Source: a virus (Duplodnaviria > Heunggongvirae > Uroviricota > Caudoviricetes). From it: 7,982 nt of DNA. Within the stretch, counting starts at the first letter, position 1, and each line of letters begins with the position of its first letter. The translations under genes and the position numbers were made by a program. The DNA is taken from the IMG/VR virus record IMGVR_UViG_2690316184_000004, positions 1 through 7,982 of that record; one strand, 5' to 3'. Of the stretch, positions 2,707 to 7,982 are shown in pieces. The notes beneath the pieces are model-generated. The model was not told the origin of the DNA, ran no database searches, and worked only from the letters and a program-made list of their open reading frames with translations.

Positions 2707-3186
2707 ATGAAAATCTGCTCAAGATGCCATCAACAGAAGGAAGAAAGGGACTTTCAAATCAGAAGAGCATCCAGAGATGGATTAACTGCCGCTTGCCGGG
2801 CTTGCCTGGCTGAATACGACAAAGAGCGCGCGGGATTGCCACATCGAGTATCAGCAAGGAGAGAATATCAATCATCGGAACGCGGCAGAGAACGGTGTAA
2901 CGCAGCCAAAAAGCGGTTCATTCAGAGCAACCCATGGAAAAGAAAAGCCCACATCATTGTGGGTAATTTTTTGCGCGACGGTAAGCTAATCCGACCACCA
3001 CAATGTGAGCGCTGCGGATCAGAATGTAAACCACAGGCGCACCACTGCGATTACAGTAAACCTCTTGAAGTAATGTGGCTATGCAAAGCATGTCATGTTG
3101 AATGGCACAAGCACAACAAGCCAATATATCCAGACGAGGAACCAGTAACCCTCCCCTTCCCTCGTCACGCTATTCACGCAATTTAA
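2707..3186 (+). CDS. HNH endonuclease with N-terminal Cys-rich (zinc-ribbon-like) region
   Basis: 159 aa; GGAG (2697-2700) before ATG 2707. C-terminal CERCGS...AHHCDYSKPLEVMWLCKACHVEWHK fits the HNH CxxC...HH...CxxCH pattern. N-terminal CSRCH ... CRAC gives a second Cys pair set. Confidence 0.75.
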   Translation: MKICSRCHQQKEERDFQIRRASRDGLTAACRACLAEYDKERAGLPHRVSARREYQSSERGRERCNAAKKRFIQSNPWKRKAHIIVGNFLRDGKLIRPPQCERCGSECKPQAHHCDYSKPLEVMWLCKACHVEWHKHNKPIYPDEEPVTLPFPRHAIHAI

Positions 3187-3194
3187 GGACTTAC

Positions 3195-3743
3195 ATGAAT
3201 CACTTAATGGTTGACCTTGAAGCAATGGGCAACGGGCCATATGCGCCAGTTATTTCTATTGGGGCGGTATTCTTTGACCCGAATACCGGAGAAACAGGAG
3301 AAGAGTTCTCGGTAAATATCTCGCTTGAGTCATCAATGCGATATCGGGCGCGTCCTGACGCTTCAACGATTTTATGGTGGATGGAACAGAGTGAAGAAGC
3401 CAGAAAATCGCTAACCAGCAACACTCAAGAGCTTTCAACGGCTCTTTCATGGTTATCTGAATTCATCATAAAGAACGCCAACCACAAACTCGTTCAGGTT
3501 TGGGGGAATGGAGCATCATTTGACTGCGTTATTCTCCGCAACAGTTATTCGCTGACAGGGCAGCCAGTTCCGTGGCAGTGGTGGAATGACCGCGACGTAA
3601 GAACAATCGTCGAACTTGGGAAGGTAATAGGATTCGATCCTAAGCGAGATATGCCATTCAAAGGAACTCGCCACAACGCGCTTGATGATGCCATCCACCA
3701 AGCCAAATACGTTTCAGCGATCTGGAAAAAGTTAGCTAAATAA
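3195..3743 (+). CDS. DEDDh-type 3'-5' exonuclease (DnaQ-like fold; resembles the Rv2179c-like exonuclease family found in prophages)
   Basis: Start chosen at ATG 3195 (AAGGAC at 3185-3190) rather than the overlapping 3102 extension. Motif I MVDLEAMG (D-x-E), motif II GNGASFDCVIL (Asp), motif III GTRHNALDDAIHQAKY (His...Asp). Confidence 0.8.
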   Translation: MNHLMVDLEAMGNGPYAPVISIGAVFFDPNTGETGEEFSVNISLESSMRYRARPDASTILWWMEQSEEARKSLTSNTQELSTALSWLSEFIIKNANHKLVQVWGNGASFDCVILRNSYSLTGQPVPWQWWNDRDVRTIVELGKVIGFDPKRDMPFKGTRHNALDDAIHQAKYVSAIWKKLAK

Positions 3744-5430: not shown

Positions 5431-5707
5431 CCTTCAACTGGTAGTTAACGGTGAATATTTCGACCAGATGAAGTCAGGCGAGAAAACGGAAGAGTATCGC
5501 CTGTGTAATGACTACTGGAATAAGCGAATTATGTTCCGGGAGTATGACCGCCTGATTATCACAAAGGGATATCCGAAGCGCGACGATTCCAGCCGCAGAA
5601 TTGATGTTCCGTATGACGGATATGAAATCAAGACAATCACACATCCGCACTTCGGCGATAAACCGGTAAAGGTATACGCGATAAAGGTGAATATCGGCAA
5701 TGAATAA
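5423..5707 (+). CDS. Hypothetical phage protein, possibly ASCH/PUA-like fold
   Basis: GTG 5423 with AGGAGG (5411-5416) 6 nt upstream; overlaps the upstream stop by 8 nt. 94 aa. Pattern VVNGEYFDQMKSGEKTEEYR ... LIITKGY ... VKVYAIKV loosely resembles ASCH-domain beta-barrel proteins (e.g. YqfB-like). Weak assignment. Confidence 0.5.
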   Translation: MANLQLVVNGEYFDQMKSGEKTEEYRLCNDYWNKRIMFREYDRLIITKGYPKRDDSSRRIDVPYDGYEIKTITHPHFGDKPVKVYAIKVNIGNE

Positions 5708-5742
5708 CAATCCTCGCACTCGCGGTGATTTCTTTTATCTGA

Positions 5743-5766
5743 ACTCGCTACGGCGAGTTTTGTTTT
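5743..5766 (+). terminator. Intrinsic terminator-like hairpin (internal operon terminator or attenuator)
   Basis: 6-bp perfect stem ACTCGC (5743-5748) / GCGAGT (5753-5758), 4-nt loop TACG, followed by TTTTGTTTT. Lies in the 72-nt gap between CDS 5423-5707 and CDS 5780-5947. Confidence 0.4.
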
Positions 5767-5779
5767 ATGGAGATGATAA

Positions 5780-5947
5780 ATGCACTTCCGAGTCACAGGT
5801 GAATGGAATGGAGAACCATTCAACAGGGTTATCGAAGCAGAGGACATCAACGACTGCTATGCCCACTGGATGCTGTGGGCGCAGATAGCGCATGCAGACG
5901 TAACCAATATTCGAATTGAAGAACTGAAAGAACACCAAGCCGCCTGA
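5780..5947 (+). CDS. Hypothetical small phage protein, 55 aa
   Basis: ATG 5780 with GGAG (5769-5772) 7 nt upstream; stop TGA sits in the loop of the downstream terminator. Product MHFRVTGEWNGEPFNRVIEAEDINDCYAHWMLWAQIAHADVTNIRIEELKEHQAA. Preferred over the overlapping track ORF 5700-5888. Confidence 0.4.
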   Translation: MHFRVTGEWNGEPFNRVIEAEDINDCYAHWMLWAQIAHADVTNIRIEELKEHQAA

Positions 5948-5962
5948 TGGCGGTTTTTTATT
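5939..5962 (+). terminator. Rho-independent terminator
   Basis: GC-rich stem CCGCC (5940-5944) / GGCGG (5949-5953) with 4-nt loop TGAT, followed by T-run TTTTTTATT (5954-5962). Confidence 0.6.
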
Positions 5963-6004
5963 ACCTGATTTGCAGGTTCGATTCCCTATTCGGAGATAGC
6001 ACTC

Positions 6005-6205
6005 ATGCAACACGAACTACAACCTGATTCACTGGTTGATTTGAAATTCATCATGGCCGATACTGGCTTTGGTAAAACCTTCATCTATGACCGGATTAAG
6101 TCCGGCGACCTGCCAAAAGCCAAAGTTATCCACGGTCGAGCAAGATGGTTATATCGTGACCATTGTGAATTCAAAAATAAGCTCTTAAGCCGCGCCAATG
6201 GGTAA
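6005..6205 (+). CDS. AlpA/Xis-like prophage DNA-binding protein (excisionase or transcriptional regulator family)
   Basis: 66 aa; GGAGA (5991-5995) upstream of ATG 6005. FIMADTGFGKTFIYDRIKSGDLPKAKVIHGRARWLYRDHCEF fits the AlpA-family pattern (helix-turn-helix, tG.s.stIY..i..G.FP, conserved Trp). Last gene of the phage operon, where xis sits in lambdoid phages. Confidence 0.7.
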   Translation: MQHELQPDSLVDLKFIMADTGFGKTFIYDRIKSGDLPKAKVIHGRARWLYRDHCEFKNKLLSRANG

Positions 6206-6221
6206 AATAGCGGGTAAAATA
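6200..6221 (+). repeat. Tandem direct repeat GGGTAAAATA x2 (12-bp period) overlapping the AlpA-like stop codon
   Basis: GGGTAAAATA at 6200-6209 and again at 6212-6221, separated by GC. Each copy contains a -10-like TAAAAT. Confidence 0.4.
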
Positions 6222-6254
6222 TTTCTCACATCTAAAAAACACCATTCCAATCAA

Positions 6255-6288
6255 TCCCCTGCTGCTTCAAGTAGATGTCTGCAGGGGA
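6255..6288. repeat. 8-bp inverted repeat TCCCCTGC / GCAGGGGA with 18-nt spacer
   Basis: TCCCCTGC (6255-6262) is the exact reverse complement of GCAGGGGA (6281-6288). No U-tract follows on either strand. Confidence 0.35.
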
Positions 6289-6681
6289 CACCAGATACCC
6301 TTCAAACGAAATCTACCTTCACCCCGTAAAAGATGGGTTTGGCAGCACACTTGCCTTATATCTACTCATTTTTACTGCAACAGGTTGAAATCTCAGCACT
6401 GTCAGAAAGCGCTGATGACTAAACAGCCCTGAGCCGGGCGATGTAACCATCACACAGAATCCTGATAGCGAAATATGGCGTGACTCGATACTTCACTCCG
6501 CAATGCATTCCTTGATGAATTCGCAGGACCGTGATACACGGGACAGGTCACTGAATGACGACAATGTCCTGGAAATCAGCGAACCGCGCATCTGAAGTAC
6601 ATTTGAGCGACTGTACCAGAACATGAATGAGGCGTTTGGATTAGGCGATTATTAGCAGGGCTAAGCATTTTACTATTATTA

Positions 6682-6725
6682 TTTTCCGGTTGAGGGATAT
6701 AGAGCTATCGACAACAACCGGAAAA
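6682..6725. repeat. 11-bp perfect inverted repeat TTTTCCGGTTG / CAACCGGAAAA with 22-nt spacer, 10 bp from the transporter stop codon
   Basis: TTTTCCGGTTG (6682-6692) and CAACCGGAAAA (6715-6725) are exact reverse complements. The T/A runs are part of the stem, not a 3' U-tract, so it is not a canonical intrinsic terminator on either strand. Confidence 0.4.
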
Positions 6726-6734
6726 AGTTTACGT

Positions 6735-7982
6735 CTATATTGCTGAAGGTACAGGCGTTTCCATAACTATTTGCTCGCGTTTTTTACTCAAGAAGAAAAT
6801 GCCAAATAGCAACATCAGGCAGACAATACCCGAAATTGCGAAGAAAACTGTCTGGTAGCCTGCGTGGTCAAAGAGTATCCCAGTCGGCGTTGAAAGCAGC
6901 ACAATCCCAAGCGAACTGGCAATTTGAAAACCAATCAGAAAGATCGTCGACGACAGGCGCTTATCAAAGTTTGCCACGCTGTATTTGAAGACGGATATGA
7001 CACAAAGTGGAACCTCAATGGCATGTAACAACTTCACTAATGAAATAATCCAGGGGTTAACGAACAGCGCGCAGGAAAGGATACGCAACGCCATAATCAC
7101 AACTCCGATAAGTAATGCATTTTTTGGCCCTACCCGATTCACAAAGAAAGGAATAATCGCCATGCACAGCGCTTCGAGTACCACCTGGAATGAGTTGAGA
7201 TAACCATACAGGCGCGTTCCTACATCGTGTGATTCGAATAAACCTGCATAAAAGACAGGAAAAAGTTGTTGATCAAAAATGTTATAGAAAGACCACGTCC
7301 CCACAATAAATATGACGAAAACCCAGAAGTTTCGATCCTTGAAAACTGCGATAAAATCCTCTTTTTTTACCCCTCCCGCATCTGCCGCTACGCACTGGTG
7401 ATCCTTATCTTTAAAACGCATGTTGATCATCATAAATACAGCGCCAAATAGCGAGACCAACCAGAAGTTGATATGGGGACTGATACTAAAAAATATGCCG
7501 GCAAAGAACGCGCCAATAGCATAGCCAAAAGATCCCCAGGCGCGCGCTGTTCCATATTCGAAATGAAAATTTCGCGCCATTTTTTCGGTGAAGCTATCAA
7601 GCAAACCGCATCCCGCCAGATACCCCAAGCCAAAAAATAGCGCCCCCGGAATTAGACCTACAGAAAAATTGCTTTGCAGTAACGGTTCATAAACGTAAAT
7701 CATAAACGGTCCGGTCAAGACCAGGATGAAACTCATACACCAGATGAGCGGTTTCTTCAGACCGAGTTTATCCTGAACGATGCCGTAGAACATCATAAAT
7801 AGAATGCTGGTAAACTGGTTGACCGAATAAAGTGTACCTAATTCCGTCCCTGTCAACCCTAGATGTCCTTTCAGCCAAATAGCGTATAACGACCACCACA
7901 GCGACCAGGAAATAAAAAAGAGAAATGAGTAACTGGATGCAAAACGATAGTACGCATTTCTGAATGGAATATTCAGTGCCAT
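6735..7982 (-). CDS. MFS transporter of the LacY-like oligosaccharide:H+ symporter family (substrate unknown)
   Basis: 415-aa ORF on the - strand with ATG at the very window edge (7980-7982), stop TAG at 6735-6737. Highly hydrophobic with about 12 predicted TM segments. N-terminal NAYYRFASSYSFLFFISWSLWWSLYAIWL parallels LacY [28 protein letters not shown]. The true start may lie beyond the window. Confidence 0.85.
   Translation of the reverse strand: MALNIPFRNAYYRFASSYSFLFFISWSLWWSLYAIWLKGHLGLTGTELGTLYSVNQFTSILFMMFYGIVQDKLGLKKPLIWCMSFILVLTGPFMIYVYEPLLQSNFSVGLIPGALFFGLGYLAGCGLLDSFTEKMARNFHFEYGTARAWGSFGYAIGAFFAGIFFSISPHINFWLVSLFGAVFMMINMRFKDKDHQCVAADAGGVKKEDFIAVFKDRNFWVFVIFIVGTWSFYNIFDQQLFPVFYAGLFESHDVGTRLYGYLNSFQVVLEALCMAIIPFFVNRVGPKNALLIGVVIMALRILSCALFVNPWIISLVKLLHAIEVPLCVISVFKYSVANFDKRLSSTIFLIGFQIASSLGIVLLSTPTGILFDHAGYQTVFFAISGIVCLMLLFGIFFLSKKREQIVMETPVPSAI

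Follow-up and report, generated by a model that had tools for sequence, protein, structure and literature searches.

An excisionase gene without a neighbouring integrase at the argW attachment junction of an HK620/Sf6-type prophage in Escherichia coli

The recombination directionality factor (RDF) of the KplE1 (CPS-53) prophage is TorI, which also inhibits the response regulator TorR (PMC3509656, PMC2951348). TorR inhibition is the activity by which TorI was first found, and both activities reside in one protein (PMC3509656). In KplE1, intS is the first and torI the last prophage gene, and the same recombination module is conserved in HK620, Sf6 and CUS-3 (PMC2951348, PMC3509656). The int promoter overlaps attL, and the transcription of int and of the RDF gene is uncoupled (PMC2951348). 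IntS is maintained at a low, self-repressed level from this promoter inside attL (PMC2951348), and TorI binds GTTCG-type sites in attL, represses PintS and steers IntS and IHF to excision (PMC2951348, PMC3509656). A duplicated 16-nt core, CTGCAGGGGACACCAT, borders KplE1, and the motif TAAA is common to all of the IntS arm-type P' sites (PMC2951348). The control of KplE1 excision hinges on RDF expression, by a mechanism that remained to be studied (PMC2951348).

In the present study, a stretch of 7,982 nucleotides (the window) containing a torI gene but no integrase gene beside it was compared with these systems. The window very probably shows the attR end of a P22-like (HK620/Sf6-type) prophage that is inserted at argW, a tRNA-Arg gene, in a sucrose-positive E. 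coli, with torI as the RDF gene and int split off to attL. It includes 6.3 kb at the right end of the prophage, and the left end lies outside it. An excisionase gene without a neighbouring integrase is the ordinary and already described layout at attR in the KplE1/HK620/Sf6 family. The finding as it was first posed is thus a rediscovery of a published module at the well-known variable argW-csc/dsd locus of E. coli. The features discussed below are collected in Table 1.

Table 1. Features around the prophage/host junction, in window coordinates
Feature	Position	Strand	Description
Intrinsic terminator	5937-5960	+	Hairpin (8-bp stem, 4-nt loop) and T run, separating ORF 5780-5947 from torI
Box core AGGTTCGATTCC	5974-5985	+	12 nt; conserved upstream of TorI-family RDF genes
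torI Shine-Dalgarno GGAG	5992-5995	+	9 nt before ATG; read from the sequence; conserved as GGAG(A/T) in the leader alignment
torI ORF	6005-6205	+	66 aa; excisionase (RDF) of the KplE1/HK620/Sf6 module, also TorR response-regulator inhibitor
Paired direct GGGTAAAATA repeats	6200-6209, 6212-6221	+	12 nt start to start; overlap the torI stop codon
Rest of attR phage P arm	6206-6278	+	73 nt; contains ATCAATCCCCTGC; identical to K-12 attR and HK620 attP
attR core CTGCAGGGGACACCA	6279-6293	+	Last 15 nt of argW (nt 61-75); prophage/host crossover within
argW-cscB host spacer	6294-6734		441 bp, chromosomal; not prophage
DUF4942 pseudogene relic	6360-6646	+	Residues ~76-151 of 281 clear, ~38-65 weak; in-frame stop at ~6596
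Perfect 11-bp inverted repeat TTTTCCGGTTG / CAACCGGAAAA	6682-6692/6715-6725		22-nt loop; just past the cscB stop
cscB sucrose permease	6735-7982	-	415 aa, LacY family; Pfam LacY_symp E = 3.4e-193; convergent

The locus shares with KplE1 of K-12 the RDF gene, the leader from about position 5955, the 73-nt P arm, the core, the argW target and the terminal position of torI. However, KplE1 survives as a remnant of 10 kb next to dsdC, whereas the window carries a P22-like early-left operon and a csc flank, and the sixteenth core base is T in KplE1 and G in the window. The Lederbergviruses HK620 and Sf6 represent the free-phage form of the same module and are 98-99% identical to the window at the nucleotide level over 5940-6293; they differ in being mosaic, with other early-left genes upstream, and in that the attP of the window has been converted to attR by integration. 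The lambda/P22 module likewise has a tyrosine integrase with arm-type and core-type sites, depends on IHF and expresses a small winged-helix RDF from the early-left transcript (PMC2951348), but differs in gene order relative to attP, and int and xis of the TorI type are not co-transcribed after integration. In modules of the TorI type, int has its own self-repressed promoter inside attL, and sib retroregulation as in lambda is not applicable as such. The AlpA/Vis regulators of P4-type islands (PF05930, COG3311) are also comparable, as they combine a small HTH/winged-helix protein with a DUF4102-containing integrase that targets a tRNA gene; several records of TorI homologues are tagged COG3311 AlpA, while the TorI of the window falls below the Pfam AlpA threshold.

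The first-pass annotation had described the ORF at 6005-6205 as xis-like, and the database comparisons bear this out. The encoded protein matches the Tor inhibition protein (PDB 1Z4H; E = 6.6e-43, residues 1-66) and the PHROGs family phrog_66, "excisionase and transcriptional regulator" (E = 2.7e-8). HkaC of HK620 and gp18 (gene 18) of Sf6 are 100% identical to it in amino-acid sequence (tblastn), and torI of K-12 differs by 4 nucleotides. In complete E. coli genomes, full-length megablast matches to 5900-6800 with 99.1-99.6% identity are annotated in RefSeq as "torI: response regulator inhibitor TorI". Identification of the gene came from PDB, PHROGs and RefSeq, as Pfam and NCBIfam gave no family above threshold: Phage_AlpA (PF05930) scored 12.7 bits (E = 0.12) against a gathering threshold of 21 bits, HTH_17 scored 16.9 bits against a cutoff of 27, and the NCBIfam models gave no match to TorI. 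The additional label "AlpA-like" is, as far as the protein sequence goes, a loose resemblance and not membership of the Pfam family.

Upstream of torI lie the genes of a P22-like early-left operon, encoding an Erf-like annealing protein, SSB, an endonuclease, a 3'-5' exonuclease, Abc2 and proteins with DUF551 and ASCH domains, and ORF 5780-5947 is the last early-left ORF before torI. The placement of torI at the operon end can be kept with a nuance, namely that a strong terminator hairpin (5937-5956) with its T run separates it from the preceding gene. The terminator scan found five terminators against 0.9 expected, and the same 5937-5956 hairpin dominates the RNA fold. The homology of the window with K-12 and HK620 starts inside the T tail of this terminator. 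No sigma-70 promoter was found upstream of torI, and the sole promoter-like match (6652-6679) lies in host DNA.

Downstream of torI, the 529 bp of 6206-6734 contain no ORF of 60 aa or more, as had been noted, the longest being 43-44 aa (6198-6329 on the plus strand, 6319-6453 and 6493-6624 on the minus strand), and the next gene is indeed a convergent transporter of the LacY family, labelled in RefSeq as cscB or oligosaccharide MFS transporter. The prophage/host junction had been expected somewhere in this interval, and the empty-site comparison suggested with that expectation places it at 6279-6293. A synthetic join of the argW region and the sequence from 6294 onward was used as the empty-site query in 5,426 complete E. 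coli genomes, and this reconstructed site was found contiguous at 99.7% identity in 1,471 of them; for example, the prophage-free strain WCHEC020031 carries yfdC, argW, 441 bp and cscB in this order. The sequence to the left of the core equals the attP of HK620, and that to the right (6294-6734) equals the prophage-free attB, the argW-cscB spacer of WCHEC020031, with a single mismatch in 441 bp. The same 441 bp are single-copy in 2,645 of the 5,426 genomes. Nineteen phage records matched, and in every one of them the homology stops at 6293. From the empty-site and phage comparisons together, 88 nt (6206-6293) of the 529 bp are P arm and core and 441 nt are host DNA. The first-pass annotation had also considered that the interval might be host intergenic DNA conserved in prophage-free strains with the boundary upstream of 6005; the former is true of 6294-6734, but the boundary lies downstream of torI.

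When the attR of the window is aligned with the attB of the empty site, the attP of HK620 and the attL of K-12, the core is the only block common to all four. It occurs once in the window, 73 nt past the torI stop, and the same gap is found in K-12, where the 15-nt core is annotated as pawZ. The identity between the window and K-12 begins at about 5955 and breaks off at 6293, exactly after ...ACCA; right after the argW core, K-12 leaves the window sequence and enters dsdC. At the sixteenth core position, attP and K-12 have T and the csc-type attB has G, so that the window shares 15 and not 16 bases with the published core, and this difference confines the crossover to the 15 shared bases. Such 15-base sharing would be expected of an attR. 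The attL of ISHS7 reads ...CTGCAGGGGACACCATTTATCAGTTCG.... Since the phage carries a copy of the tRNA 3' end, the boundary can be set to the base.

The description of the interval as repeat-bearing applies modestly, to two direct copies of GGGTAAAATA at the torI stop and one 11-nt inverted repeat in the host spacer. The positions of the GGGTAAAATA copies are those of the annotated "attP repeat_region" in HK620, and the motif, which includes TAAA, recurs, in direct and inverted orientation, beside the int start in attP and attL. The pair would represent P-arm integrase arm-type sites, to judge from motif and position. In addition, the GCAGGGG of the core has its inverted complement, CCCCTGC, at 6256-6262, and in Rouxiella this inverted pair is altered on both sides (CCCCTACA / TGTAGGGG). 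The locus has in common with the KplE1/HK620/Sf6 module the identity of the RDF, the core, the order of att sites and genes (as regards int, presumably, from the free phages and related lysogens), the TAAA arm sites (at the sequence level) and a boundary verified against attB.

The absence of an integrase beside the xis-like gene, as first annotated, is confirmed by the ORF list and by tblastn. It had been read against the order xis-int-attP of lambda, a premise that is wrong for HK620/Sf6-type phages, in which attP lies between the RDF gene and int. In the window, no int follows the RDF gene and the att core lies 73 nt past its stop. As free phages, HK620 and Sf6 carry the early-left genes, hkaC or gp18, the attP core, a promoter and int one after another on one strand, and integration at an attP situated between the RDF and int genes sends the two genes to opposite prophage ends. 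K-12 shows the outcome in the order yfdC, argW, intS, ..., torI, 73 nt, pawZ (a 15-nt pseudo-argW) and dsdC, and the annotated extent of its CPS-53 runs from inside argW to just before pawZ. The layout of RDF, about 250 bp and int is kept in five divergent phages (Klebsiella Chronis; Erwinia Midgardsormr38, EhrS_49 and phiEt88; Salmonella Emek), the RDFs of which are 39-88% identical. The closest relatives of the whole window, ISHS7 and 23CRST032, carry cscB-torI, P22-like structural genes and intS-tRNA-Arg-yfdC, with intS about 38 kb from torI in ISHS7; the best whole-window match in the genome collection has 87% coverage. The suggestion that the element uses an integrase located elsewhere is therefore borne out in relatives, as IntS is encoded at the opposite end by argW in K-12, ISHS7 and 23CRST032, and we infer that intS lies at the far prophage end in the genome of the window as well. 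ARAGORN found no tRNA gene in the window, which holds 3' fragments of argW only.

An alternative put forward at the outset was that an integrase once stood beside the xis-like gene and was deleted, leaving a grounded cryptic prophage incapable of excision. The window contains no integrase, its far prophage end is outside view, and prophages at argW do decay, as seen in the IS3 insertion and truncated tailspike gene of ISHS7 and in the 10-kb remnant KplE1. However, the free phages carry int across attP from the RDF gene, so that none is expected here, and the absence follows from the layout of the module. The 88 nt past torI are an intact P arm and core, base for base, and neither an integrase nor a fragment of one was detectable in the whole window by tblastn with K-12 IntS and HK620 Int, the best hit (E = 1.5) being noise; the proposed search for integrase pseudogene fragments thus gave nothing in favour of a deletion. 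Moreover, the relatives carry intS beside argW, the argW-attL-intS end, present in 1,899 of 5,426 complete E. coli genomes, is no rarer than the end with torI and the P arm (1,405 of 5,426), and even the defective element of K-12 still has intS and excises (PMC2951348). We therefore consider a deleted integrase very improbable. Still less credence, indeed hardly any, is due to the reading in which the 529 bp belong to the phage, perhaps as a moron or regulatory segment, with the boundary beyond it or upstream of 6005. The small ORFs of 43-44 aa, and an ORF annotated in HK620 and Sf6 as hkaB/gp17 that starts at the torI stop, might be cited for it, but 6294-6734 abuts argW in the prophage-free genomes and is single-copy chromosomal DNA, phage homology ends at 6293, and torI and its leader are phage-borne. 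The phage-record, empty-site and four-way att comparisons already refute this reading.

It is also improbable that torI serves here as a response-regulator inhibitor rather than as an excisionase. Its original discovery as a TorR inhibitor with both activities (PMC3509656), its RefSeq name and the presence of the torI end in 1,405 of 5,426 genomes are compatible with a regulatory role. Against a purely regulatory role stand the identical protein of the active phages HK620 and Sf6, the intact att-site context and the position of torI at the end of an apparently full P22-like early-left operon (Erf-like, SSB, exonuclease, Abc2); moreover, the two roles are not exclusive.

Herein, we propose the following account of an attR end with an excisionase and a distant integrase. 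A crossover by the integrase inside the 15-16-nt core, between attP and the 3' end of argW, would split the module, placing int at the left end beside argW (attL) and torI at the right end (attR). In the lysogen, IntS would be constitutive, low and self-repressed, as in KplE1. The strong terminator and the position below the early-left operon imply that TorI synthesis should need read-through, and we infer that it depends on read-through from the early-left promoter, by analogy with N antitermination in lambda. TorI would then appear once early-left transcription passes the 5937-5960 terminator after induction, and TorI, IntS and IHF would assemble on attL and attR for excision, the occupancy of the att sites by protein being presumed. 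Even if excision works, this prophage may be unable to form phage, as decay is common among its relatives, in view of the IS3 insertion and truncated tailspike gene in ISHS7 and the defective KplE1.

For the automated calling of prophages, these results call for caution, as a lone excisionase gene is the normal signature of attR in the KplE1/HK620/Sf6 family and not a sign of decay.

A further observation concerns the leader of torI. A 16-nt block, TTGCAGGTTCGATTCC, at 5970-5985 on the plus strand is an exact copy of nt 46-61 of argW, comprising the 5' strand of the T-stem and the T-loop. It ends 19 nt before the torI ATG and has sharp edges, and the chance expectation for such a match is 0.01. 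Together, the block (nt 46-61) and the core (nt 61-75) account for the final 30 nt of argW, and they enclose torI and the P arm. Within the block, the 12-nt box AGGTTCGATTCC is found at about -29/-30 from the RDF start, about 9 nt before the Shine-Dalgarno sequence, in 11 of 17 independent leaders, which come from Escherichia, Enterobacter, Citrobacter, Serratia, Pantoea, Edwardsiella, two Erwinia phages and Salmonella Emek. The flanks of the box are otherwise unrelated among these leaders, and Midgardsormr38 has two tandem copies. Of the 120 matches to the arrangement box-SD-ATG in the viral collection, 87 precede a TorI-like ORF (100% to 39% identity); to judge from their sequence, the remaining 33 seem to be chance ORFs or the 3' ends of true tRNA genes. 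The box and the core TGCAGGGGACA are constant while the arm-type sites (GGGTAAAA in HK620 and Midgardsormr38, GGGCATA in Emek and phiEt88) and the middle P' repeats (CAGTTCG in HK620 and Midgardsormr38, CCGATGTAACC in phiEt88) vary.

Several explanations of the box were considered and either rejected or weakened. A chance match was rejected, as the block is an exact 16-mer and the box recurs in otherwise unrelated leaders. In the HK620 record the stretch bears the label of a putative cII-dependent promoter, but the TTGC-N6-TTGC motif of a cII site is not conserved in the other leaders. A decaying recombination scar does not account for it either, because none of the several scenarios of integration and aberrant excision considered puts nt 46-61 of argW directly before torI, and a scar would have changed as the RDF diverged to 39% identity. 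An arm-type site was rejected, as the box is unchanged although the arm sites differ (GGGTAAA versus GGGCATA), and an operator for TorI is weakened by phiEt88, which retains the box alongside P' repeats of a type other than GTTCG. A conserved RNA structure, be it a hairpin or a mimic of the T-arm, is not supported, with RNAalifold giving -1.1 kcal/mol and one compensatory pair.

The conservation pattern suggests that the box is probably functional. That it acts as a cis-element gating the synthesis of the excisionase is a tentative proposal, and one we think more likely wrong than right. Because the box and the att core are constant while the arm sites and presumed RDF sites are replaced, one candidate is an attB half-site decoy, to which the core-binding domain of the integrase might bind, so that the resident integrase would clamp RDF expression in the lysogen; an RDF operator and occlusion of the Shine-Dalgarno sequence at the RNA level are alternatives. 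We did not find the box described in the KplE1 literature searched, and it may be mentioned in earlier work mapping attR. A tRNA-derived box in the leader of the RDF gene would nonetheless offer a concrete candidate for the uncharted control of excision, and it is the only element of the locus perhaps worth experiments.

The host side of the junction contributes two minor observations. The csc cluster follows the order cscB, cscK, cscA, cscR, dsdX' and dsdA, with cscB first, and the perfect inverted repeat just past the cscB stop is also present in the empty-site strain, which marks it as host DNA. It is possibly the terminator of cscB, although it fails the loop limit of the terminator scan. 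A search of 5700-6800 against Rfam at E <= 1 returned two sub-threshold chance matches only. The spacer itself holds the fossil of a DUF4942 gene. Residues 76-151 of the DUF4942 protein of Nissle 1917 match 6419-6646 with 51% identity (tblastn, E = 3e-17), with an extra weak segment at 6360-6443 (tblastn, E = 0.23). Intact DUF4942 genes hold paralogues of the spacer with 73-77% identity in distant blastn comparisons (73% over 202 nt), and in some genomes PGAP labels 6503-6592 as "DUF4942, incomplete". The idea of a grounded element suits this relic and not the TorI prophage. In Nissle 1917, DUF4942 is the distal gene of a tRNA-associated island that contains DUF932, antirestriction, RadC, CbeA, CbtA, DUF5983, DUF957 and DUF4942 genes; by these resemblances, the spacer is the fossil distal end of an older argW island, the integrase end of which is gone.

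A likeness to the tRNA gene was found on both sides of torI, the excisionase gene of the module. The copy of argW sequence in the torI leader (see the table) and the att core at 6279-6293 together tile the last 30 nt of argW. The centre of this copy, AGGTTCGATTCC, is kept in 11 of 17 divergent leaders of TorI-family excisionase genes, at a fixed distance from the Shine-Dalgarno sequence, and across this family comparison the box was without co-variation with either the arm-type sites or the presumed excisionase sites. In addition, a strong terminator precedes torI, and thus torI is not simply the final cistron of an uninterrupted operon.

Features in and around torI and the attachment site
Feature	Position in the window	Location
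Strong intrinsic terminator	5937-5960	Between the last early-left ORF and torI
Exact copy of argW nt 46-61	5970-5986	19 nt 5' of the torI ATG
43-aa ORF	6198-6329	Start inside the torI stop (ATGGGTAA); extends through the att core as far as host DNA
DUF4942 gene, internal fragment	6360-6646	Host spacer between argW and cscB

Within the P arm, the phage DNA between torI and the core, CCCCTGC (6256-6262) forms an inverted pair with its complement, the GCAGGGG of the core (6281-6287), at a spacing of 18 nt. Both members are altered together in the Rouxiella locus (CCCCTACA / TGTAGGGG), and this joint change suggests that the two sites function as a pair. Left of the core, a degenerate similarity to the argW T-loop is retained in attP and attR sequences (loci L008, L009, L011, L019 and L020), as in attP TTCGATGTATGCAGG compared with argW TTCGATTCCTGCAGG. 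Judged from this residual similarity, the ancestral block of identity with the tRNA was probably longer, reaching through the T-loop.

The short ORF across the core has counterparts in HK620 (hkaB), Sf6 (gene 17), Midgardsormr38 (ORF36) and Emek (orf47). As it runs into host DNA, its C-terminus is altered by integration. This ORF is unlikely to be a gene, and its sequence is accounted for by the putative arm-type sites.

In the host spacer, the DUF4942 fragment (51% amino-acid identity, E = 3e-17) contains an in-frame stop and is the fossil of the distal end of an older island, of the CbeA/CbtA type, at argW. Beyond it, cscB is intact in the window, whereas the annotation of the prophage-free reference WCHEC020031 (L006, 3067-4314) lists it as a pseudogene that has an internal stop.

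Several minor observations were also made. The 3'-5' exonuclease ORF (3102-3743), with its start called at 3102, overlaps the preceding endonuclease-like gene (2707-3186) by 85 nt; because the homologue in the close relative ISHS7 has 182 aa, the true start is probably 3195. Enterobacterial-type TorI modules, 85-92% identical, were present on contigs labelled as Actinomycetes and Parachlamydiaceae MAGs (L018, L032), probably through misbinning or contamination. In the E. coli genome collection, the torI-plus-P-arm and argW-attL-intS sequences were each found in five plasmid records; phage-plasmids, excised circles and artefacts of assembly are possible explanations.
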